This document shows positions 4,495 through 56,092 of a stretch of DNA of 64,000 bases, in pieces (the first letter of the stretch is position 1; the number at the start of each line of letters is the position of its first letter). The DNA is from a bacterium (GTDB lineage Bacteria > UBA8248 > JACPRG01 > G963555815): positions 416,001 to 480,000 of the forward strand of contig CBDHDG010000007.1 in the NCBI GenBank assembly GCA_965261595.1, given 5' to 3'. A program made the position numbers and the translations under genes. Under the pieces are notes generated by a model that saw only the letters and a program-made list of their open reading frames with translations, did not search any database and was not told where the DNA came from.

Positions 4495-5206
4495 GGATTA
4501 CAGTGATTTTGCAGCTCTGGTAAAAAACAACTGGGATGATATCCGCCATCTGGCGGAACAGCATTCCTACTGGACGAACCGAGATAATTGCGACGAGTTG
4601 TTAGCTAAAAAGAGAGCTACAGTTTCGACCCTCCTAAATACGGAATCAAGGATTATTCAGGAACTAGATAATTCGGAACAATGGATTCAAACAGCGTGCC
4701 GCCTCAGGACATTACTTGATATTGTGAACACATTGGGCTGCTTCATTCTGACAAAAGGAAGAATTGAAGACTACTATATTCATAAATTAAGCAAAAATCG
4801 TAATGATAAACGCAATGTGGCAGCGCTCGAAGCATCTCATATTGCGGATGCAGATAACCTGAATATCAGAAAAGACTATGCTGATATAGTCGCTGCTATA
4901 GAGTATGCCGCGCACGCGGAGACGATTGATGAAGGCATGGCGATAAGAGATCTTGTTCTGGCGGTCGTCACACCAGCGTTGGCGAATATTACTCCTGACA
5001 CAACGACCATTCAACTTAAGACCCAAAGTAAAAGCATGTTGGGCAAGAAATCCGAATTGTTCGATCTTGAAGTGGAAAACGATGACGGTCTTCACTTGGT
5101 AGTAAACCTAAAATCGACAATATTAGATGTAAAGGGATTTCCACTTAGAATTCCTGTCGATTCAAATCCGATTGTCAGTGTAAATCATCAAATGGGTCTC
5201 GAGTAA
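4495..5206 (+). pseudogene. Low-GC 5'-truncated ORF, possibly C-terminal part of an OLD/TOPRIM-type ATP-dependent nuclease
   Basis: Frame open upstream of 4598 without a good start; abrupt GC drop; GCFILTKGRIEDYY resembles C-terminal motifs of OLD-family proteins (from memory, unverified). Confidence 0.4.
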
Positions 5207-6109
5207 CGGTTGCTGTCTAACGAAGAGTTAACCTCCCAGTATTGAGATGGTGAGGGTTCAATACCTCAGAGTGTTAAATCACATACTCCGCTGACCTGCC
5301 CCCAAGAACGAGACCACCTGCTACGTTAGACACGGGACCCTTTGAAGTCCACTCCGGGGAACCGGCGCCAGGGCTTGGGATCTTGGGAATCTGGTCTCCG
5401 GCGCAGGCGGCCGGTAGGCCAAGGCGCTGTGAGGCCGTCGCTGGTTGTACGCCCCCTCCACCTCTCCACCAGCACCTGGGCTTCCTTCAGCGTCTCAAAC
5501 ACCTCCACGTTCAGGAGCTCATCCCTCAGCTTCCCGTTGAAACGCTCCACATATCCGTTCTCCCAGGGACTCCCTGGCTCGATGTACAACGTCCTCACGC
5601 CAACCGCCTTGAGCCAGTCCCTGACCACCCTGGCCGTGAACTCCGACCCGTTATCTGACCGGAGGTATTCAGGGACTCCCCGGCCCACAAACAGCTCTGC
5701 CAACCGCTCCAGCACATCTTGGTGATTCATCTGCCTTGGGGGCATCAATGGATAAACATTCAAAGGCTGTACGCATCCAAAATGGTCAACAGCCGGAAAG
5801 CTCTCCCTTCTTGGGTACACTCATGCATGAAGGCATAGCTCCAGACATGGTTCCGATGAGTTGGTCTCAGGCGCACGCAGGACCCGTCATGGAGCCACAG
5901 TCTCCTTCGTTTCGGCTGTCTGGACGGGACCTTCAGCCCCTCCTGTCTCCAAAGCCTTTCCACTCGCTTGGGGTTCACCTTCCACCCCTCTAAGGCGAAG
6001 CATGGCCGTGATCCTCCGGTACCCGTATCGATGGGGTGGACGCCCCCTCCCGACGGCATCACGCTGTGGCAAGGTGGTGTCGTGTTCAACCCCTGAAGGA
6101 GGAGGAACC

Positions 6110-7114
6110 ATGGAACAAGTGAGCATCATCGGCATCGATTTGGCGAAACACGGCTTTCAACTGCACGGCGCGCGGCCGGACGGTTCGGTTGCATTCCGCA
6201 AGAAGCTGACCAGGGAGAAAGTGCTGGACTTTCTGGCCTCGCACCCGCGCTGTCTGGTAGCGATGGAGGCATGTGCGAGCGCGCACTATTGGGGCCATGA
6301 GATCGGCAAGCTCGGCCATGAGGTGAAGCTCATGCCGCCGGTCTATGTGAAACCCTTCGTCAAGCGTCACAAGAACGACGCCGCGGATGCGGAGGCCATC
6401 TGCGAGGCGGCCTCTCGCCCGACCATGCGCTTTGTGGCCGTGAAGACGGAGGGCCAGCAGGCCCACGGGATGCTGTTCCGCACGCGCGATTTGCTGGTGC
6501 GCCAGCGCACGCAGCCCATCAACGCGCTCCGGGGCCACTTGGCGGAGTTCGGGGTCATCGCTCCGCAGGGACCGGCTTATGTCGGCCGGCTGGCGTTGGC
6601 CCTTGCAGAGCCGGGCTCGGGGCTGCCCGAGGCGGTCCGCGAGCTGGGCGGTGTTCTGCTCGATCAGATTGCCGGCCTGAACGAGAAGATTCGGGAGTTG
6701 GACAAGCAACTCCGCACGAGTGCGCGCCAGGACGAAGAGACGAGGCGCCTGATGACCATCCCGGGGATCGGGTCGATCAGTGCGATGGCTATCCAGGCCT
6801 TCGCGCCGCCGATGGAGAGCTTCCGGCGCGGCCGTGACTTCTCGGCCTGGCTCGGGCTTGTCCCGCGGCAGAACTCCACCGGAGGCAAGCCGCGGCTGGG
6901 CAAGATATCGAAGACGGGCCAGCGCGATGTCAGGCGGCTGTTGATCACGGGCGCGATGGTGGTGGTGCGTTGGGCGGCCCGGCGCGGTGCGCCGGCAGGC
7001 TCATGGCTGGCTCGGATGCTGGTCGCGGTGGCGCTGCCGAATCGAATGGCGCGGACTGCCTGGGCGTTGATGACGAAGAAAGCGGTCTATCGGGAGCCGG
7101 CGCCGGCCGTCTGA
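6110..7114 (+). CDS. IS1111-type DEDD transposase/recombinase
   Basis: GIDLAK, MEAC, KNDAADA (DEDD); IPGIG; QNSTGGK; GGAGG RBS; apparent short in-frame deletion near C-terminus. Confidence 0.92.
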   Translation: MEQVSIIGIDLAKHGFQLHGARPDGSVAFRKKLTREKVLDFLASHPRCLVAMEACASAHYWGHEIGKLGHEVKLMPPVYVKPFVKRHKNDAADAEAICEAASRPTMRFVAVKTEGQQAHGMLFRTRDLLVRQRTQPINALRGHLAEFGVIAPQGPAYVGRLALALAEPGSGLPEAVRELGGVLLDQIAGLNEKIRELDKQLRTSARQDEETRRLMTIPGIGSISAMAIQAFAPPMESFRRGRDFSAWLGLVPRQNSTGGKPRLGKISKTGQRDVRRLLITGAMVVVRWAARRGAPAGSWLARMLVAVALPNRMARTAWALMTKKAVYREPAPAV

Positions 7115-7185
7115 GCGACAGGCGCGCGGATGACGTCGGGAATGTGAGCAGGTCGGAGGACGGGTAAGGGACAACGGTCAACGCG

Positions 7186-7326
7186 ACGGGATCGGGAAAA
7201 CCAGGGTATGGCCAAGAGCCCTCGAGCTCGCCGTGCCGATTTGGACCTGGTCCGCGCATCTCCATACGGGCCCGCAGCGTGTGACCCGCCGCATCAGAAG
7301 GCCGGATACACGACTGCACCTGACCA
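7186..7326 (+). ncRNA. Putative seekRNA/bridge RNA of the IS1111 element (boundaries approximate)
   Basis: Two internal loops: GTATGGCC (7206-7213) and CCGTGCCG (7231-7238) resemble the target; CTCCAT (7260-7265) and ATACACGA (7306-7313) match the donor circle junction. Confidence 0.8.
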
Positions 7327-7928
7327 CATTGCTCCAAACTGTCCGAAGAAAACGCTTGCATTCACGGGGGCGTCCATACACGGCTATACTGACTGGCCAA
7401 CTCCAGCATCCGGATCACCAGTTGTGCCTCTTCCTTGGGGAATCTGTCGGACTCTTCGCTGGGTGGATCTGGCCTGTCCCAACACGCGGCAGGCCCGACG
7501 CTCACAGACTCGCTCAGGCCCGAACCGCTCTCTGACCCATACCACGGATCCTCTCCGCTTCGCCGGCGCCTGGAAGTTTCCCGAGGAGACTTCCTTCAAA
7601 ATCTGGTTGTCCAGCGACAGGTCCGCCACCAGCTTCTTCAGCCGGCCATTCTCCTTGTCCAGCGACTTCAGACGCTTGGCCTGATCCATCCTCAGACCCC
7701 CGTACTCCTTCCTCCACCGGTAGTCGGTCTGCTCGGTTACCCCGACCGGCTTGCACACCTGGACCACCGTCTTCCCCTGGGACTGGGCCACTTCCGCCTC
7801 TCGCAGCTTGATGACGATCTGTTCCGCTGTAAACCGCTTCCTGGCCAGCCTTCCCCTCCTTCCGAAAATCCAGGAATACTCCTTTATCAACTGGACTCGT
7901 TTGAAGGGGGCAGCGACTGTCTTCGATG

Positions 7929-9038
<1,110 letters not shown>

Positions 9039-9113
9039 CTAGATACCGAAGACAGCCTACCCCTTCCTACCAACTCAGAAACAAGATAAAAGGTCAGGGT
9101 AGCTTTATTCACA

Positions 9114-10014
9114 GGGGATTGTAAAAGCTATGACACCGGATTAGGCTGGTGTCGTGGACGTAAAGAGCTTTGAAGGGCTTGTAAAAACGGAGGTTACAGC
9201 GAGACGCCATTTGCTCAGGGCGTGTCAGAAAAACGGGCGTAAAATCTGCCCTCGTTGTGAGGGTCGAAAATGCTACGTTGTGGGCACGAAAGGGCGGTTT
9301 CGCTGCGCTGGGTGTCGGTACACCTTCGGGCCGTTCACGGGCCGCTGGCTGGGCCAGCTTCGCCTCTCGGCCCGGCAGTGGCTTTGGGTGGTGAAGCTCT
9401 TTGAGCTGGAGGTCGCGGCCCGCAAGATGGCCCAGCAACTCGCCGTGAGCTATCCGACGGCGCTCAGGGCTGTGACGACGCTCAGGCGCAGTCTTGTGGC
9501 CGGAACGCCGGGGGGACAGGAGCTTCTTCGAGGGGAGGTGGAGGCGGACGAGGCCTACTTCGGGGGCAGGCGCAAGGGGAAGAGAGGCCGAGGCGCAGCG
9601 GGTAAAGTCCCTGTTTTCGGTATTTTGGAGCGGGGTGGCCGGGTGAAGGTGGAGGCGGTCGGCAATGTCAAGGCCCGGACCCTTTTGGCCTCCACCGTGA
9701 AGCTGGTCCATCGGGGCAGCGTGGTCTACACCGACCGCTACCAGCGTCTATGACGCCCTGATGTTCTGCGGCTATCGCCACCTGCGGGTGGATCATGATC
9801 GGCGCTTCAGTCGGGGCAAAGTGCACGTCAACGGCCTGGAAGGCTTTTGGGCCTACGCCAAGCAGAGGCTCATCAAACATCATGGCGTGTCCAAGGAGCG
9901 ATTCCCCCTCTACCGGAAGGAGATGGAATTCCGCTACAATCACCGCCACCAGGATCTCTTTCCCCTGGTGGTCCAACAACTCACCCAATTGGTGTCAAAA
10001 CCTTTATAATTCCC
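9114..10014 (+). mobile_element. IS1595-family element; transposase 9154..10009 frameshifted near 9750
   Basis: Zn-ribbon CPRC..CAGC, VEADEAYFGG, VYTD, NGLEGFW, EFRYN; IRs GGGGATTGTAAAAGCTATGACACC/GGTGTCAAAACCTTTATAATTCCC; 8-bp TSD TATTCACA/TATTCATA. Confidence 0.92.
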
Positions 10015-10235: not shown

Positions 10236-13200
10236 ATGAAACTAGTCGGAACTCCTTTCACGCACGATCCGGATAAGGTTTCGAAGATGAATTACAAGTA
10301 CTACGATTCGGCGGCTCTCGTTGATCGGCTCTGCAATGCCTCTGATAGGAGAGACAGGGCCGTCACGTTCCTTGTAGGTTCGCCGCTATCGCTTCCGGAT
10401 CATGTGGGAGGGCACGGCGTGCCGGGTGTCTCCGGCATGATTGACCTCATCCGTCGTGAGTTCGAGTGTAGCGACGCCGAAACTGAATTTGATCAGAGCC
10501 TCAAGGGAGAGGCGGCGAATTGGTACCGGAGAGCCTTCGAGTTCTTGCATGGGCGAAGAGGGCAAGATGTCGTGAATAGAATCGTCAGAGCTGCCGTGTG
10601 GCAAGCCTTGGACGCCAACAATTGGCCTTCTTGCCTTCCCATGAAGTCGCCACATGATGCGGACTCTGCCATCTGCAAAACCCTAGAGGGTGAAGTTGAT
10701 GCTTGGGTCTTGCCACGTGCTGTGGATCTCCTCGGAAATCTGTTGGTAACTTTCTGGGATACGTTTGGAGGAGTTGTGTTGACGACAAACTTCGATCCTT
10801 TGATCGAGGTCAGTGTCCCCCGCTCTAGGGTTTTGTTGGACACTCGATTGATCCATGATTCATGGAGAAAGGGGTGTCGCGATGAACGAACAAAAGCAAG
10901 AGGGGGCTTTGGCGGAGGGCGCCCGCAGGGCGAACGGAGCCAAGGCCCCAGGGCATCGCAGTGAGCGGGGTCGGTTCTCCTGCCAGCGCAAGCGGGAGGC
11001 GGTCCTGCGTCTTTTGCGGGGCGAGAGCCTGGAGACGCTCTGCCGCGAGTTGGGCACGACAGCGGCTCGGCTTTCCGCCTGGCGCGAGGCGTTCCTTCGC
11101 GGGGGCGAGGCGGCGCTCAAAGCCCGCCCGGCGGATGAGCGGGACGAGGAGAACGCCCGGCTCAAGGCCAAGGTGGGCGAACTCACGATGGAGGGCGAGG
11201 TCCTGCGGGAGAAGATCGACCGCCTGGAGGCCGGCCGCCCTTTAGCCGGCAGGAGGTGGAGGCGATGAGTCAGGCCCGCTTCACCTCCACGGGCAGAGCC
11301 TACGGCCTGAAGCGGGTGTGCGCCCTTTGGGGCTTGGCGCGCTCCACGGTCTACGCGCAACGGCGGCGAGAGGCGGTCCCCGTTCATGAACGCCCCACGC
11401 CCCATAAGCGCGGCCCTGTGGGCCCGTGCACCGATGCGGAACTCCTCGGCCACATCCGGCAGGTCCTGGAGGACTCTCCCTTCCATGGCGAGGGCTACCG
11501 CAAGGTGTGGGCGAGGCTGCGCTTCGCGGGCATCCGCACCAGCAAGGAGCGGATGCGTCGCCTGATGCGGGAGGCGGGGCTTCAGGCCCCCCACCGGGTG
11601 GGCAAACCCCGAGGTCCCAAGGCCCACAACGGGACCATCCGCACCGAGCGGCCCGACCGAATGTGGGGCACGGACATGACGACGACGGTGACCACCGAGG
11701 AGGGGATGGCCTCGGTGTTCGTGGCGGTGGATCACTGCTCGGTGGACTGCGTGGGGATCCATGCGGCCAAGAGCGGCAACCGCTTCGAGGCCCTGGAGCC
11801 GATCCGGCAGGGGGTCGCCGAGCGCTTCGCCGGCTTGGAGGCGGACGTCGCCGAGGGGCTTAAAGTTCGTCACGACCACGGCCCCGCCTATCTGTCCGAT
11901 GACTTTCAGCGGGAGATCGCCTACCTGGGCATGACCAGTTCGCCCAGCTTCGTGCGGGCGCCCGAGGGAAATGGCTACTGTGAGTGGTTCATCCGCATCT
12001 TGAAGGAGAATCTCCTGTGGGTGCGCTCTTTCGCCACCGTAGAGGAACTGCGGTGGGCGCTGCTTGAGTTCAAGAACCTGTACAACCATCATTGGATTCT
12101 CGAGGGCTACGGCTACCGAACGCCGGCCCAGGCAAGGCAGGAAAAACTCGCTCAAGTTGCGGAGGCCGCATGAGGTCGAATACCCTCACCCGAGTGTCCA
12201 ATAACCCAGGGGCGGTCCAAGTGTGTCGAAGCACGGTGGGCGATTCTACAGAACTGTGCTCCACGACGACGGGAAACTGGGGCAGACGGTTGCAGAAGGT
12301 ACTCATATCGTCCACCTCCATGGGTATTGGCAGGGCTCTGACACGCTTCACACGCCGCAGCAGTTGGTTCAACCGCGGCCGCAGCTTGGAAGGTCGCTCG
12401 CGCGAGTGGTCGAGGCATCGACCCTGGTCGTTATTGGATATAGCGGTTGGGATGACGTGATTACGCAGACTCTTGTGGAATTACTATCAGATTCGGAGAG
12501 CAATCCAGAGATCATGTGGGCGTTTCATGAAGAAGACACAGCGACCATCGAGGCGTCGAACGAGCGGGTACTCTCTGTACTCGCGCCGGGAATTGGTCGG
12601 GGGAGAGTGTCGCTGTACCGAGATATCGACTGTTGCTCCATACTCTCTGATATCTACGAACAACTGAAACCTAGTTACCCAGCAACTTCTGGCCCGACCA
12701 GAGGGCCACATATGACTACCGTCGTCAAAGAGGACGCCGGTGGAGGCGCTGGACGGCGCCAAGTACGCATCGAGATGAATTTTGCGATGCCGCAGCAAGC
12801 CTCGGCCGATTCAGATAGACCGTTGTTTGTTACCCCCTGGGTCGGCCGAGATCAAGAACTGAGCATTCTGGCTTCCTCAATCACGCCTGTGGCTTTTATC
12901 ACAGGGCTGGGAGGGCAGGGAAAGTCAGCGCTTACTGGACGGTTTCTGCAACAGCAGGCCATGGCCGCGGGCGGTCGTTTTGAGTTCTGGGACTGGAGAG
13001 ACTGCCGAGAAGAAAGTGATCGACTGATCACGCAGATCCTTCGCCTTATCGAGCGTTTGAGCGATGGGGCAATAGACGCCAGCCAGATCGAGGTTACCGA
13101 TATCAGAGCGGTGATCGGTGTGCTGTTTCACGTGCTCCAGGACCGGAAGGCCCTTCTCGTCTTCGACAACGTAGACCAGTACGTCGATCTCGAGACGCTC

Positions 13201-22356: not shown

Positions 22357-25267
22357 ATGTACTCAGTGGAACTGTACGCACGGGTTCGGCACGCCTGCCA
22401 CGTAGAAGGGATGAGCATCCGCGAAGCGGCGCGGGCGTTTGGTTTGCACCGGGACACGGTGCGCAAGATGCTGCGGTTTTCGATACCGCCCGGGTATCAG
22501 CGGAGTCATCCCCGGGCGAGGCCGAAGCTGGATCCGTTTATGGGTGTGATCGACCACATCGTGGAGGGGGACCGGAAGTGTGTGAGGAGACAGCGTCACA
22601 CGGCCAAGCGGATCTTCGAGAGGCTGCGCGACGAGCACGGTTTCACGGGCGGTTACAGCATCGTGAAGGACTACGTGCGGGAGCGGCGGTAGCGGTCCCA
22701 GGAGATGTTCGTTCCCCTGGTCCACCCACCCGGCCATGGCCAGGCGGATTTTGGCGAGGCCCTGGCGGAGATTGCCGGGGTGGAGGGGAAGGTATCGTTT
22801 TTCACCTTCGATTTGCCCCACAGCGACATGGGTTTCGTGAAGGCCTATCCTGCGGAGAGGACCGAAGCCTTCTGCGCCGGTCATAACGCGGCCTTCGCCT
22901 TCATCGGCGGTATCTCTCACAGCATTCTCTACGACAACACCAAGCTTGCGGTGGCGCGCATCCTGGGCGATGGGAAGCGTCAGCGCACCCGGGCCTTTAG
23001 TGAGTTGCAGTCCCACTACCTGTTCAAAGAACGTTTTGGCCGTCTGGGCAAGCCGAATGACAAGGGGAAGGTCGAGAACCTGGTGGGCTATGTCCGGCGG
23101 AACTTTTTCGTTCCCATCCCGCGCATTGAGAGCTTCGAGGCCCTCAATGCCCACCTGGAGGAGCAGTGCCGGAAGCGGTGGTCCCCCGCTCTAGGGTTTT
23201 GTTGGACACTCGATTGATCCATGATTCATGGAGAAAGGGGTGTCGCGATGAACGAACAAAAGCAAGAGGGGGCTTTGGCGGAGGGCGCCCGTAGGGCGAA
23301 CGGAGCCAAGGCCCCAGGGCATCGCAGTGAGCGGGGTCGGTTCTCCTGCCAGGCGCAAGCGGGAGGCGGTCCTGCGTCTTTTGCGGGGCGAGAGCCTGGA
23401 GACGCTCTGCCGCGAGTTGGGCACGACAGCGGCTCGGCTTTCCGCCTGGCGCGAGGCGTTCCTTCGCGGGGGCGAGGCGGCGCTCAAAGCCCGCCCGGCG
23501 GATGAGCGGGACGAGGAGAACGCCCGGCTCAAGGCCAAGGTGGGCGAACTCACGATGGAGGGCGAGGTCCTGCGGGAGAAGATCGACCGCCTGGAGGCCG
23601 GCCGCCCTTTAGCCGGCAGGAGGTGGAGGCGATGAGTCAGGCCCGCTTAACCTCCACGGGCAGAGCCTACGGCCTGAAGCGGGTGTGCGCCCTTTGGGGC
23701 TTGGCGCGCTCCACGGTCTACGCGCAACGGCGGCAAGAGGCGGTCCCCGTTCATGAACGCCCCACGCCCAATAAGCGCGGCCCTGTGGGCCCGTGCACCG
23801 ATGCGGAACTCCTCGGCCACATCCGGCAGGTCCTGGAGGACTCTCCCTTCCATGGCGAGGGCTACCGCAAGGTGTGGGCGAGGCTGCGCTTCGCGGGCAT
23901 CCGCACCAGCAAGGAGCGGGTGCGTCGCCTGATGCGGGAGGCGGGGCTTCAGGCCCCCCACCGGGTGGGCAAACCCCGAGGTCCCAAGGCCCACAACGGG
24001 ACCATCCGCACCGAGCGGCCCGACCGAATGTGGGGCACGGACATGACGACGACGGTGACCACCGAGGAGGGGGTGGCCTCGGTGTTCGTGGCGGTGGATC
24101 ACTGCTCGCTGGACTGCGTGGGGATCCATGCGGCCAAGAGCGGCAACCGCTTCGAGGCCCTGGAGCCGATCCGGCAGGGGGTCGCCGAGCGCTTCGCCGG
24201 CTTGGAGGCGGACGTCGCCGAGGGGCTTAAAGTTCGTCACGACCACGGCCCCGCCTATCTGTCCGATGACTTTCAGCGGGAGATCGCCTACCTGGGCATG
24301 ACCAGTTCGCCCAGCTTCGTGCGGGCGCCCGAGGGAAATGGCTACTGTGAGTGGTTTATCCGCATCTTGAAGGAGAATCTCCTGTGGGTGCGCTCTTTCG
24401 CCACCGTAGAGGAACTGCGGTGGGCGCTGCTTGAGTTCAAAAACCTGTACAACCATCATTGGATTCTCGAGGGCTACGGCTACCGAACGCCGGCCCAGGC
24501 AAGGCAGGAAAAACTCGCTCAAGTTGCGGAGGCCGCATGAGGTCGAATACCCTCACCCGAGTGTCCAATAACCCAGGGGCGGTCCAGTGGGGAGCACGCC
24601 TGCGTGGGCACAGAGAGAGCATCGGCGAGCGCTTTGAGCGGGACCGGCAGGTCCTTTTGCCGTTGCCGCCGTTGCCGTACGACGCCTGTGAGAAGAGCGG
24701 TACGCGGGTGAGCTCTCTGTCTTTGGTGCGCTACCGGGGGGCAACGACTACTCGGTTCCCGTGGCTTACGGCCACCGTGAGGTGCTGGTTCGGGGCTACG
24801 TGCACGAGGTGGTCATCACCTGCGGGACGGAGGAGATTGCCCGTCACCGGCGCTCCTGCGAGCGGGAGGACCTGGTCTTCAACCCGCTGCATTACCTGGC
24901 GCTGATTGAGAAGAAGATCGGTGCACTGGATCAGGCGGCGCCCCTGGCCGGGTGGGAGTTGCCCGAGGCATTCGGCACGCTGCGCAGGCTGCTTGAAGCG
25001 CGCATGGGCAAGGCCGGCAAGCGGGAGTACGTCCAGGTCCTGCGGCTGCTCGAGACGTTCGGGTTGGAGGAAGTTGACGCCGGGGTCCGGGATGCCCTGC
25101 GGCTGGGAACCATCGGCTTCGATGCGCTCAAACACCTGATGCTGTGCCGCATCGAGCGCAGGCCTGCCCGGCTGAACCTGGAGGTCTATCCCTATCTGCC
25201 GCGCGCCCGGGTTGCGACAACCTCCGCCCGGGCGTACCTGGACCTGCTCACGGGGGTGCGGCCGTGA
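22357..25267 (+). pseudogene. istA: IS21 transposase IstA (nonsense at 22690, IS insertion at 23181, frameshift near 24740)
   Basis: HTH, GQADFGE, YDN, KGKVENLVGYVRRNF. Confidence 0.88.
23181..24586 (+). mobile_element. IS-A copy 3 (extra G frameshifts orfA near 23352)
   Basis: Near-identical to other copies; TSD GTG (or GTGG). Confidence 0.95.
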
Positions 25268-45349: not shown

Positions 45350-46754
45350 GTCCCCCGCTCTAGGGTTTTGTTGGACACTCGATTGATCCATGATTCATGG
45401 AGAAAGGGGTGTCGCGATGAACGAACAAAAGCAAGAGGGGGCTTTGGCGGAGGGCGCCCGCAGGGCGAACGGAGCCAAGGCCCCAGGGCATCGCAGTGAG
45501 CGGGGTCGGTTCTCCTGCCAGCGCAAGCGGGAGGCGGTCCTGCGTCTTTTGCGGGGCGAGAGCCTGGAGACGCTCTGCCGCGAGTTGGGCACGACAGCGG
45601 CTCGGCTTTCCGCCTGGCGCGAGGCGTTCCTTCGCGGGGGCGAGGCGGCACTCAAAGCCCGCCCGGCGGATGAGCGGGACGAGGAGAACGCCCGGCTCAA
45701 GGCCAAGGTGGGCGAACTCACGATGGAGGGCGAGGTCCTGCGGGAGAAGATCGACCGCCTGGAGGCCGGCCGCCCTTTAGCCGGCAGGAGGTGGAGGCGA
45801 TGAGTCAGGCCCGCTTCACCTCCACGGGCAGAGCCTACGGCCTGAAGCGGGTGTGCGCCCTTTGGGGCTTGGCGCGCTCCACGGTCTACGCGCAACGGCG
45901 GCGAGAGGCGGTCCCCGTTCATGAACGCCCCACGCCCAATAAGCGCGGCCCTGTGGGCCCGTGCACCGATGCGGAACTCCTCGGCCACATCCGGCAGGTC
46001 CTGGAGGACTCTCCCTTCCATGGCGAGGGCTACCGCAAGGTGTGGGCGAGGCTGCGCTTCGCGGGCATCCGCACCAGCAAGGAGCGGGTGCGTCGCCTGA
46101 TGCGGGAGGCGGGGCTTCAGGCCCCCCACCGGGTGGGCAAACCCCGAGGTCCCAAGGCCCACAACGGGACCATCCGCACCGAGCGGCCCGACCGAATGTG
46201 GGGCACGCACATGACGACGACGGTGACCACCGAGGAGGGGATGGCCTCGGTGTTCGTGGCGGTGGATCACTGCTCGGTGGACTGCGTGGGGATCCATGCG
46301 GCCAAGAGCGGCAACCGCTTCGAGGCCCTGGAGCCGATCCGGCAGGGGGTCGCCGAGCGCTTCGCCGGCTTGGAGGCGGACGTCGCCGAGGGGCTTAAAG
46401 TTCGTCACGACCACGGCCCCGCCTATCTGTCCGATGACTTTCAGCGGGAGATCGCCTACCTGGGCATGACCAGTTCGCCCAGCTTCGTGCGGGCGCCCGA
46501 GGGAAATGGCTACTGTGAGTGGTTCATCCGCATCTTGAAGGAGAATCTCCTGTGGGTGCGCTCTTTCGCCACCGTAGAGGAACTGCGGTGGGCGCTGCTT
46601 GAGTTCAAGAACCTGTACAACCATCATTGGATTCTCGAGGGCTACGGCTACCGAACGCCGGCCCAGGCAAGGCAGGAAAAACTCGCTCAAGTTGCGGAGG
46701 CCGCATGAGGTCGAATACCCTCACCCGAGTGTCCAATAACCCAGGGGCGGTCCA
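45350..46754 (+). mobile_element. IS-A copy 4 (first catalytic Asp changed to His: WGTHMT)
   Basis: Near-identical to other copies; no TSD. Confidence 0.94.
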
Positions 46755-47977
46755 AGGCGGTCCTGCGTCTTTTGCGGGGCGAGAGCCTGGAGACGCTCTG
46801 CCGCGAGTTGGGCACGACAGCGGCTCGGCTTTCCGCCTGGCGCGAGGCGTTCCTTCGCGGGGGCGAGGCGGCGCTCAAAGCCCGCCCGGCGGATGAGCGG
46901 GCCGAGGAGAACGCCCGGCTCAAGGCCAAGGTGGGCGAACTCACGATGGAGGGCGAGGTCCTGCGGGAGAAGATCGACCGCCTGGAGGCCGGCCGCCCTT
47001 TAGCCGGCAGGAGGTGGAGGCGATGAGTCAGGCCCGCTTCACCTCCACGGGCAGAGCCTACGGCCTGAAGCGGGTGTGCGCCCTTTGGGGCTTGGCGCGC
47101 TCCACGGTCTACGCGCAACGGCGGCGAGAGGCGGTCCCCGTTCATGAACGCCCCACGCCCAATAAGCGCGGCCCTGTGGGCCCGTGCACCGATGCGGAAC
47201 TCCTCGGCCACATCCGGCAGGTCCTGGAGGACTCTCCCTTCCATGGCGAGGGCTACCGCAAGGTGTGGGCGAGGCTGCGCTTCGCGGGCATCCGCACCAG
47301 CAAGGAGCGGGTGCGTCGCCTGATGCGGGAGGCGGGGCTTCAGGCCCCCCACCGGGTGGGCAAACCCCGAGGTCCCAAGGCCCACAACGGGACCATCCGC
47401 ACCGAGCGGCCCGACCGAATGTGGGGCACGGACATGACGACGACGGTGACCACCGAGGAGGGGGTGGCCTCGGTGTTCGTGGCGGTGGATCACTGCTCGG
47501 TGGACTGCGTGGGGATCCATGCGGCCAAGAGCGGCAACCGCTTCGAGGCCCTGGAGCCGATCCGGCAGGGGGTCGCCGAGCGCTTCGCCGGCTTGGAGGC
47601 GGACGTCGCCGAGGGGCTTAAAGTTCGTCACGACCACGGCCCCGCCTATCTGTCCGATGACTTTCAGCGGGAGATCGCCTACCTGGGCATGACCAGTTCG
47701 CCCAGCTTCGTGCGGGCGCCCGAGGGAAATGGCTACTGTGAGTGGTTTATCCGCATCTTGAAGGAGAATCTCCTGTGGGTGCGCTCTTTCGCCACCGTAG
47801 AGGAACTGCGGTGGGCGCTGCTTGAGTTCAAAAACCTGTACAACCATCATTGGATTCTCGAGGGCTACGGCTACCGAACGCCGGCCCAGGCAAGGCAGGA
47901 AAAACTCGCTCAAGTTGCGGAGGCCGCATGAGGTCGAATACCCTCACCCGAGTGTCCAATAACCCAGGGGCGGTCCA
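46755..47977 (+). mobile_element. IS-A copy 5, 5'-truncated within orfA, directly abutting copy 4
   Basis: Starts at AGGCGGTCCTGCG (internal orfA); intact orfB 47023..47931. Confidence 0.94.
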
Positions 47978-55223: not shown

Positions 55224-55345
55224 TGACCCACCCCCACTAACGAGACCATCCCCTACGTTAGTCTCGGGACTATCTGAAGTTCACTCCGGGGGACCCGCGC
55301 CAGGGCTTGGGAACTTGCAACTCTTTGCCTCTGGCACCGAAAACC
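55224..55345 (-). mobile_element. IS407-group right-end remnant related to the 5292 end
   Basis: TGACCCACCCCCACTAACGAGACCATCCCCTACGTTAG resembles 5292..5330. Confidence 0.7.
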
Positions 55346-55349
55346 GGTA

Positions 55350-55445
55350 ACCCCAGGCATGGTCGAGATGGCGCAATTGTCGGTTGTCCCTGCCGGTTCC
55401 AGACTGCGCCGCCCTCAAGTTAGGAAGAAGACACGGCCATTCGCG
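55350..55445 (-). pseudogene. Decayed fragment of a second MOBF relaxase-helicase gene
   Basis: NGRVFF..LEGG...QLRHLDHAW vs DGRVTFRLEDGR...QLHHLDHAW at 15.7 kb; CCCAGGCATGGTCGAGATGG shared exactly. Confidence 0.6.
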
Positions 55446-55456
55446 AGCAGAGCGAG

Positions 55457-56092
55457 TGACCAGACCGATTTTTTGTACCACTTATTGGGAGAGAGTTTAC
55501 ATGCAGCCTGAGGCTGTGAAACCGGTTTGGGGGGAAGGAATGGAGTGCAGACCTCCGGCGCCGGGGGCCTATAATTCAGCGCCGAGTGCGGTCTCCGGGT
55601 GTTATATTCCTCCCGCCATGGCTCAATCACAATCTGGGCCTCCTTCAACGAATAGAAGATCTCACCATTCAGGCATTCGTCTCTCAGCTTCCCATGGAAA
55701 CGCTCACAATACCCATTGTCCCAGGGACTACCGGGTTCGATGTATAACGTTCCGGTTCCGACCTTCCCCAGCCACTGGCGCAAGTCCCGGGCCAGAAACT
55801 CTGGGCCGTTGTCGGATCGAATATGCTCCGGGACCCCTTGCCACACCATCACGTCCGACAACGCCTCGATCACCTCCGGGCTGCCTATCCTCCGCTCGAC
55901 TCGGATGGCCAGGCATTCCCTCGTATACTCGTCCAGCAGCGTCAGAAGCCGCAGCGTTCTTCCATCGTGCGTTCTGGCGCTGACAAAATCATAGCTCCAG
56001 ACGTGGTTCCGATGCTCCGGCCGCAGTCGCACACAGGAACCGCCGTTCAGCCAGAGCCGTCCTCGGGGCCTTTGTTTCTGCGGCACTTTCAA
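55457..56092 (-). mobile_element. IS407-group IS3 3' remnant, cut by an IS1380-type end at 56093
   Basis: WSYDF, SDNGPEF, PGSPWDNGYCERF, YNTRRPHSAL; CCGGGATTTCCCAAATG at 56093. Confidence 0.85.

Follow-up and report, generated by a model that had tools for sequence, protein, structure and literature searches.

An IS1111-type element with a putative seekRNA between two conserved codons of an IS3-family transposase gene

The Element and the Gene That It Interrupts

The window analyzed here—64,000 nt of contig CBDHDG010000007.1 (assembly GCA_965261595.1, positions 416,001 to 480,000)—carries at window positions 6031-7380 a 1350-bp IS1111-type element of the IS110 family, set between two copies of a CG core dinucleotide inside an IS3-family transposase gene. 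At the left junction the sequence reads CCGTAT/CG/ATGGGG, with the core at 6029-30 (at greater length GGTACCCGTAT, CG, ATGGGGTGGACGCCCCC); at the right junction it reads CCATACA/CG/GCTATAC, with the core at 7381-82 and GGGGGCGTCCATACA as the longer right end. CG is the sole sequence common to both junctions, and no target duplication extends beyond the core. Rebuilding the site from both junctions yields the empty target CCGTAT-CG-GCTATAC proposed in an initial annotation of this DNA, and every sequence string quoted there was found where that annotation placed it.

The transposase carries an N-terminal RuvC-like domain, DEDD_Tnp_IS110 (PF01548, 1.6e-14), and a C-terminal Transposase_20 domain (PF02371, 1.5e-22) in Pfam, and scores 297.5 bits against the NCBIfam model NF033542, "IS110 family RNA-guided transposase" (cut-off 140). 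In PMC11187229, IS1111-type elements are set apart from IS110-type ones by subterminal inverted repeats, a downstream non-coding region, a protein of 330-350 aa, and a GL-P----S(t)G motif; the repeats of the group are given as 7-17 bp (PMC11208160; PMC11187229). The 11-bp perfect subterminal inverted repeat of the window element, which is set in from the left tip by 6 nt and from the right tip by 4 nt, falls inside that range, and its longer non-coding stretch is the one downstream of the gene (266 nt vs. 79 nt upstream). The 334-aa translation contains GLVPRQNSTG, so length and motif also agree with the IS1111 type, a placement judged by features.

The two flanks are parts of one IS3-family element on the minus strand: orfA and the start of orfB lie right of the insert, and the remainder of orfB lies left of it. 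Pfam searches on these local pieces recognize HTH_Tnp_1 in orfA and, in the orfB that comes after it, HTH_21 and an rve integrase core. Once the insert is taken out, L-A-S-Q-Y-S-R-Y-G-Y-R-R-I-T-A-M-L is encoded in a single continuous frame of the minus strand. The element therefore separates the R codon from the Y codon in Q-Y-S-R|Y-G-Y-R-R and is antisense relative to the interrupted orfB, with the CG core supplying bases 1-2 of the Arg codon, and this insertion site is the only Y-G-Y-R-R-I coding site in the 64-kb window (Table 1).

The interrupted copy is decayed: P0125, an intact relative that scores 241.9 bits against NF033516 (cut-off 160), aligns to it by tblastn in several different frames. 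Named plasmid relatives of the target, at 37-42% identity, include members of the IS476, IS1403, ISKpn34, and ISSen4 families, and we take IS476 to belong to the IS407 group. The interrupted element is of the IS3 family and may be IS407-like, IS407 being the group name used in the initial annotation.

Table 1. Window coordinates of the element, its putative RNA, and the interrupted target
Feature	Position	Strand	Basis or remark
Target, distal part: decayed IS3-family orfB from the Y-G-Y-R-R-I codons onward, with several frameshifts	5326..6028	-	Pfam HTH_21, rve, rve_3; tblastn with P0125
Left CG core copy	6029..6030	.	Common to target and element; relatives likewise core-flanked (CG, TG, or AG)
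Left end, 79 nt: terminal extension ATGGGG (6031-36), left subterminal inverted repeat (6037-47), ribosome-binding stretch before ATG	6031..6109	+	Conserved in relatives
Transposase gene, 334 aa	6110..7114	+	Pfam, NCBIfam, alignment
Right end / 3' non-coding region, 266 nt, encoding a putative seekRNA (bridge-RNA-like)	7115..7380	+	
Putative target-binding domain: P1 (7189-96 / 7246-53), P2 (7201-03 / 7242-44), hairpin P3 (7216-19 / 7226-29)	7189..7253	+	RNAalifold, 54 sequences
5' target guide (T), GTATGGCC	7206..7213	+	Complementary to top strand of right flank (7 nt) and adjacent core base
3' target guide (B)	7232..7239	+	Equals 5 nt of left flank, CG core, and first base of element; complementary to bottom strand
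Candidate left-end donor guide CTCCAT	7260..7265	+	Complementary to element start ATGGrG
Putative second stem domain: P4 (7269-72 / 7300-03), P5 (7274-78 / 7288-92)	7269..7303	+	RNAalifold, pair counts
Donor guide ATACACGA	7306..7313	+	Last 5 nt of right end, core, and first left-end base (circle junction)
-35-like TTGCAT of joined-end promoter	7356..7361	+	-10-like CACGAT formed by 7379-82 and 6031-32
Right subterminal inverted repeat GGGGGCGTCCA	7366..7376	+	11 nt, 100% complementary to 6037-47
4-nt terminal extension TACA (7377-80) and right CG core copy (7381-82)	7377..7382	.	
Target, proximal part: IS3-family orfA (HTH_Tnp_1) and orfB start ending L-A-S-Q-Y-S-R	7383..8010	-	PF01527

Guide Blocks and Structure of the Putative seekRNA

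The transposase has thousands of homologues, and a scan of species-representative genomes with a 23-sequence transposase alignment gave at least 542 relatives among the 552 matching stretches listed. The best 80 of these loci, at 57-84% identity, were kept. Automated placement succeeded at both ends for 58 of the 80, which together with the window element makes 59 elements; the 22 loci dropped comprised 4 without a recognizable left end and 18 without a right end in the stretch searched. Right ends were aligned for 57 elements (56 relatives plus the window element), leaving out two longer than 300 nt, and removal of duplicates left 54 sequences in the RNA core alignment. Guide and target statistics rest on 49 distinct combinations and the 2332 non-cognate pairings among them. 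The 59 elements are flanked on both sides by a CG, TG, or AG dinucleotide, with differing copies at seven loci, and the right tip ends in all 59 in a 4-nt extension, yAnA.

The right-end alignments show a conserved scaffold interrupted by three variable blocks. The initial annotation had read these as two target guides and a donor guide and had named guide-target covariation across homologues as one test of that reading; such covariation was found for all three blocks. The 5' block at 7206-7213 differs from the bottom strand GTATAGCC at one of eight positions, an RNA-G:DNA-T wobble, so that it fits 7/8, or 8/8 when the wobble is counted. Its assignment as a target guide is sustained by the way in which the block tracks the right flank across relatives: in the best register over 8 positions, right guides match their own targets at 6.3 positions on average, against 3.2 for non-cognate targets.

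The 3' block had been given as CCGTGCCG at 7231-7238, matching the top strand CCGTATCG at 6/8 positions. Match and location are as described, but the first C (7231) belongs to a GC that follows the hairpin in most relatives, and the left guide proper consists of 7232-7236 together with the core (7237-38) and the A at 7239. Across the 49 combinations, the flank part of the left guide fits its own flank 5/5 in 32, 4/5 in 11, 3/5 in 5, and 2/5 in 1 (mean 4.5), compared with a mean of 1.3 of 5 in non-cognate pairings (n = 2332). For the window element, the combined score over both target guides is 10/13, a value reached by 17 of the 2332 non-cognate pairs (0.73%). The fit of its guides to its own site is thus real and better than chance.

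The donor guide agrees with the predicted circle junction at all eight positions, as had been claimed, and it covaries with the junction across the 57 aligned elements: the match is 8/8 in 39 and 7/8 in the remaining 18, over 13 different junction octamers. A further candidate, CTCCAT, may act as a left-end donor guide. Its variable base tracks position 5 of the left end in several relatives (GCCAT with ATGGCG), though not in all, and the assignment is correspondingly weak.

Two other proposals about these blocks were rejected. One was a fixed register for the 5' guide, which would have put the window element one base out of register; among relatives the core falls at positions 8-9, 9-10, or 10-11 of the 11-nt loop, and with a register that varies in this way the one originally given stands. 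The other was a guide role for 7264-70, which matches the left flank over 7 nt; CCATACGGGCC is scaffold conserved in all relatives (motif 7263-70).

The core dinucleotide differs by a single base between the two junctions at six loci, with CG on the left and CA on the right in L001-L003 and L022, and TG on the left and CG on the right in L056 and L069. At five of the six, L069 being the exception, the core copy on either side matches the guide that covers it, which suggests, from the sequences compared, that the two target guides need not specify the same core and that a core mismatch between them is tolerated. The core copies of L073 read TG and AC; the right end there may be misplaced.

The case for a structured RNA is comparative. 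RNAalifold on the 54 sequences gives a consensus of five helices with 24 pairs, 16 of which show compensatory changes. In this alignment 97.8% of cells are paired, compared with 89.4% (SD 0.4) in shuffled alignments, a level reached by 0/500 shuffles; control structures with their 3' partners slid by 1-3 columns reach at most 42.9%. P1 and P2 would enclose a junction containing a 12-nt loop (7204-15), hairpin P3, and a second 12-nt loop (7230-41), so that the guide loops flank P3 on both sides. P3 is the hairpin that the initial annotation had placed between the guides, with GAGC at 7216-19 and GCTC at 7226-29, and it recurs in the comparative fold. An Rfam scan of 5000-9500 returned no family matching the element and five weak matches elsewhere, far below gathering scores.

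Joining the ends in the predicted circle puts CACGAT exactly 17 nt after TTGCAT. This junction, TTGCAT-17bp-CACGAT, had been predicted earlier; it is present in the sequence and conserved among relatives, with TTGC at that place in 55 of the 59 elements at a 17-nt spacer and a junction hexamer that always has the form xAxGAT (CATGAT in 23, CACGAT in 15, GATGAT in 12, others in 9). The -10 hexamer of the window element is weak, matching TATAAT at 3/6 positions. Junction promoters have been reported for members of both families, IS110 and IS1111 (PMC11187229).

Guide order points the same way. The block complementary to the top strand (7206-13) lies 5' of the block complementary to the bottom strand (7232-39), which is the order found by experiment in four IS1111-type elements (PMC11187229). 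Guide order, the 3' non-coding position, and the predicted junction promoter all agree with published IS1111 seekRNAs. The description of an IS1111-type element with a putative 3' seekRNA is supported by protein domains, repeats, end lengths, and the covariation of guides with flanks and junction.

A mechanism consistent with these features can be outlined. The DEDD transposase would bind and work with an RNA transcribed from the 266 nt that follow its gene, and this RNA would fold into a three-way junction, closed by a stem, in which two short guides are exposed. The 5' guide would pair with the top strand in the right half of the target and the 3' guide with the bottom strand in the left half, both reaching into the CG core, within which strand exchange would take place. 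Positions 7306-13 would pair with the joined ends of the excised circle, and the same joined ends would assemble a promoter, TTGCAT-17-CACGAT, driving both the transposase gene and the RNA. By this route, and in antisense orientation, the element would have entered Q-Y-G/S-R|Y-G-Y-R-R at the CG where the Arg and Tyr codons adjoin. In experiments on IS1111 relatives, the RNA was recovered together with the purified transposase, circle formation and insertion both depended on it, and it proved reprogrammable (PMC11187229).

Fit to the YGRYG Codons and Alternative Explanations

Sequence comparison establishes the anatomy of the element, where it inserted, and that its guides covary with flanks and junction. 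On this basis we consider it likely that an IS1111-type, RNA-guided element entered the CG between the Arg and Tyr codons of an IS3-family orfB. The initial annotation had gone further: with one G:T wobble, it read the two target guides as spelling Y-G-R-Y-G, a motif that it called typical of the IS407 group and a better fit than the drifted local YSRYG. The two halves of the site bear on this claim in opposite directions.

The right half supports it. The motif was found in 88 of the 120 orfB homologues of the target that were listed, as YGRYGYRR in 76, FGRYGYRR in 9, HGRYGYRR in 2, and YGRFGYRR in 1; the other 32, which had no motif by the pattern used, were left out of the motif counts. Gly occupies the second place in all 88, and Ser in none. 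The nearly identical intact relatives P0124 and P0125 read ELASQYGRYGYRRITAML, with Gly, and the local Ser codon (AGC) is thus one transition from Gly (GGC). With GGC restored, the right-flank guide, which reads G-TAT-GGC-C, fits 8/8. At the DNA level, 16 plasmid-borne relatives of the target were compared, 14 at 60-68% identity and two more distant. All of the 14 encode QYGRYGYRR; the right-flank guide pairs with 4 of them at 8/8 Watson-Crick positions, better than with the local site, and with five more if wobbles are allowed. The two distant relatives, an IS476-family copy and one from Burkholderia glumae, both read differently at the motif place, so YGRYG is a trait of the close subfamily. 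Within that subfamily the motif is typical (YGRYGYRR in 76/88 homologues, and 14/14 plasmid relatives), and in its right half the Gly codon GGC fits the guide better than the local Ser.

The left half does not follow. Its guide, CGTGC, meets CGTAT in the flank and so fits 3/5, with the core at 2/2; the misfits are a G:T wobble at position -2 and a C:A mismatch at position -1. The ideal target of the initial annotation, with Arg as CGG and a G:T wobble, was observed in 0/14 of the plasmid relatives sampled, whose Arg codon is CGC in 10, CGA in 3, CGT in 1, and CGG in 0. Because that codon is never CGG, all 14 show at least the two core-proximal misfits of the local site, and in two of them a more distal wobble brings the count to three. 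Read by strict Watson-Crick pairing, the left guide would specify His, a residue found in 0/88 homologues. Since the Tyr codon cannot have been CAC, one wobble must have been present from the start. Relatives show no clear excess of wobble-type mismatches, with 9 wobble-compatible and 7 reverse transitions among 24 left-guide mismatches and 13 and 10 among 51 right-guide mismatches. What holds of the spelling claim is therefore the right guide, which is the Gly version of the motif and agrees with the consensus in 88/88 homologues; the left guide would need CGG, which is found in 0/14.

Several further observations weigh against the motif as the intended target or against an active, RNA-guided copy. 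A score of 10/13 is low for the family, in which 35 of 49 elements reach at least 11. Left-guide mismatches in the 49 elements (n = 24) concentrate away from the core, with 17 at -5 or -4 and 5 at -2 or -1, two of these five being those of the window element, and no other element among the 49 misfits at both -1 and -2. The site matches the 15-mer implied by the guides at 12/15 positions, and matches with at most three mismatches are expected 3.5 times per 64 kb by chance. The fold of the single sequence stands only modestly above shuffles (z = -1.9), the seekRNA is known here from sequence alone, and a single insertion with this guide set has been seen. The transposase itself lacks 7 residues near its C-terminus (residues about 300-310, window 7018-7040) that are present in 21/22 other aligned sequences; the missing block has the consensus ARKPRML, with three residues at least 90% conserved. 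A loss from a block nearly invariant in homologues may mean that this copy is impaired.

Copies with the same guides were found neither elsewhere in the 64-kb window, nor in the plasmid collection (438 records, best 68% nucleotide identity), nor among the best 80 genome loci (best 84% amino-acid identity). A search for further copies through read-through open reading frames carrying the left flank gave no match, and the N-terminal extensions of longer transposase homologues begin inside the left end and are uninformative on target.

The strongest competitor is a near-cognate insertion. Here the seekRNA is real, its proper target is CGTGC-CG-GCCATAC somewhere else, and the orfB motif was hit as its right half happened to fit. 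The left-guide data speak for it: a 3/5 fit with both core-proximal positions wrong, unique among the 49 elements, the lack of the needed CGG and of His among target relatives and homologues, and a 12/15 match at chance frequency. Against it, the right guide is perfect to the consensus codons, and all three differences between the guide-implied target and the site run from GC to AT in the target, one of them, Gly to Ser, a demonstrable departure from the family consensus. Relatives of the element also occupy conserved transposase codons of other insertion sequence (IS) families, and the guide-implied 15-mer does not occur elsewhere in the window, where one match with 3 mismatches is at chance level. 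The Gly-to-Ser change, and possibly one from CGG to CGA, can be explained by decay of the site after insertion. We rate a near-cognate hit as rather unlikely, and favor entry at a site that would originally have read G-TAT-GGC-CG(A or G)-TAC-G, with Ser arising from Gly as the target decayed. The motif may be the habitual target of this lineage rather than a near-cognate site.

Drift of the guide is a less probable explanation: the element would have entered at a perfect site, after which its left guide mutated at two positions in an immobile copy. The transposase deletion is what an immobile copy might show, the window holds a single copy, and the surroundings are full of decayed elements. 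The reading frame is nevertheless intact, and a 97%-identical protein, P0001, whose cluster has 10 members on three contigs elsewhere, shares the 7-residue deletion, which indicates that this variant has spread or persisted. The RNA scaffold is fully conserved in the window copy, and drift would have had to strike exactly the two guide bases, the G and C at 7235-36. We regard drift as improbable. Coincidence, in which short matches arose by chance and the site was chosen by protein alone or at random in an IS-rich region, can hardly be right: the matches are short (8 and 6 of 8), the scaffold motif matches the left flank over 7 nt as well, and nested insertions do accumulate in IS-rich regions, but the family-wide covariation of three blocks with flanks and junction contradicts it, as does the experimental proof of the mechanism in IS1111 relatives (PMC11187229).

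Known Systems, Nested Relatives, and Neighboring Elements

Descriptions of bridge RNAs and seekRNAs from the IS110 and IS1111 groups appeared in 2024 (PMC11208160; PMC11187229), and the window element is an ordinary new example of that mechanism. Its closest published counterparts are the IS1111 seekRNA elements ISEc11, ISPa11, ISKpn4, and ISPst6 (Siddiquee et al. 2024, PMC11187229). Both they and the window element have subterminal inverted repeats, a DEDD transposase of 330-350 aa with a long non-coding region after its gene, a top-strand match lying 5' of the bottom-strand match, and no duplication beyond the core; the junction promoter reported for them is predicted in the window element. 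The window element differs from them in its target, in having guide loops placed around a small hairpin in a three-way junction, and in its transposase, which is 57-84% identical only to unnamed relatives; as yet it is a sequence-level description.

The IS621 bridge RNA (Durrant et al. 2024, PMC11208160) is likewise a two-part RNA, with target and donor parts that each read both strands around a core dinucleotide and guides that covary with target and donor across orthologues. IS621 carries its RNA in the left end, with simple internal loops and a CT core, whereas the window element carries it in the right end, with a CG core (TG or AG in relatives) and donor-binding bases outside a simple internal loop. 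Such an arrangement of donor-binding bases has been noted for many IS1111 orthologues (PMC11208160).

An RNA-guided element aimed at conserved coding sequence of IS3-family transposase genes has also been published already: ISEc21, of the IS110 family. It is IS110-type, with an upstream non-coding region and a reversed guide order, and is directed at catalytic-core codons; the window element is IS1111-type, sits at N-terminal Y-G-R-Y-G-Y-R-R codons (HTH_21) of another IS3 subgroup, and is known from a single insertion. A non-exhaustive literature search found no published IS1111-type element directed at these codons. The element would extend the known landing sites in IS3-family genes to a second kind of conserved codon block. 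With its 56 aligned relatives it offers a clean natural example of the IS1111-type guide layout, including a three-way junction, a variable core register in the 5' loop, and a donor guide that follows the 4-nt terminal extension. Its mismatched left guide illustrates either natural tolerance of a core-adjacent misfit or the speed at which a site decays after insertion.

Relatives of the element are often found inside other mobile elements. We scanned with Pfam the stop-free stretches of at least 50 aa that abut the insertion points of the relatives (89 stretches); 19 loci gave a Pfam match, and in 12 of these 19 the gene hit codes for the transposase or recombinase of some other mobile element (IS21, IS5/IS1182-like, rve-type, IS630-type DDE_3, IS66, IS6, IS110, or resolvase). 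Relatives lying inside genes of other insertion sequences include L047, L051, L057, L067, L070, L040, L024, L017, L023, L062, and L068. Rebuilt sites often lie at highly conserved peptide motifs: VIM|DNL and VVM|DNL in IS630-type genes of two genera; FG|HWK, QG|HYK, and HG|HWK in IS630-type genes of three Methylobacterium genomes; PGH|WEGDL in an rve-domain gene; and a position just before TDNG in another rve-domain transposase. One relative sits between istA and istB of an IS21. We take these peptides to be catalytic-core motifs of the IS630, IS30, and IS3-like families. The guides follow local sequence variants at these sites.

These sites raise a possible, still tentative reading of the clade as IS1111-type elements whose seekRNAs are directed at the codons that other IS families conserve most strongly and which live as transposon parasites. 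If true, conserved multi-copy coding motifs would serve as landing pads harmless to the host, and the invaded transposons would be knocked out; a clade-wide pattern would bear on how RNA-guided elements spread without harm to their hosts. Nested insertions collect in IS-rich regions anyway, so the pattern does not yet amount to a strategy.

Other relatives may occupy non-coding sites. The right flanks of L022 and L004 resemble the conserved scaffold or donor-guide region, and these elements have apparently inserted in the 3' non-coding region of a like element. L030, L033, L046, and L076, from four genera, share one target, CTCTGT-TG-CACAAATC, with flanks that gave no Pfam match; this shared target may be a conserved non-coding repeat.

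Insertion sequences are very abundant in the window. Directly beyond the start of the interrupted IS3-family element lies a second, different IS110-family transposase gene (7929-8981, minus strand), in two frames: 8142-8981 encodes DEDD_Tnp_IS110 and part of Transposase_20, and 7929-8108 encodes the tail. Another IS3-family transposase, some 29% identical to P0125, is present on the plus strand in five copies, at 1116-1934, 11310-12128, 23677-24495, 45845-46663, and 47068-47886. A further IS3-family fragment at 55230-56092 (minus strand) is 64% identical to P0125 and lacks the N-terminal motif region.

Within the element, an interior inverted repeat (6065-6085 / 7308-7328, 17/21) joins the 5' leader to the region just past the donor guide and is 15/21 in the closest relative, L001; as a pairing conserved in the family it was rejected, the value for own pairs being 0.514 against 0.510 for cross pairs. 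A promoter-like site that faces outward, TTCACG-18-TATACT, straddles the right tip and flank at 7361-7390 on the plus strand, with 9/12 matches (1 seen vs. 0.2 expected).

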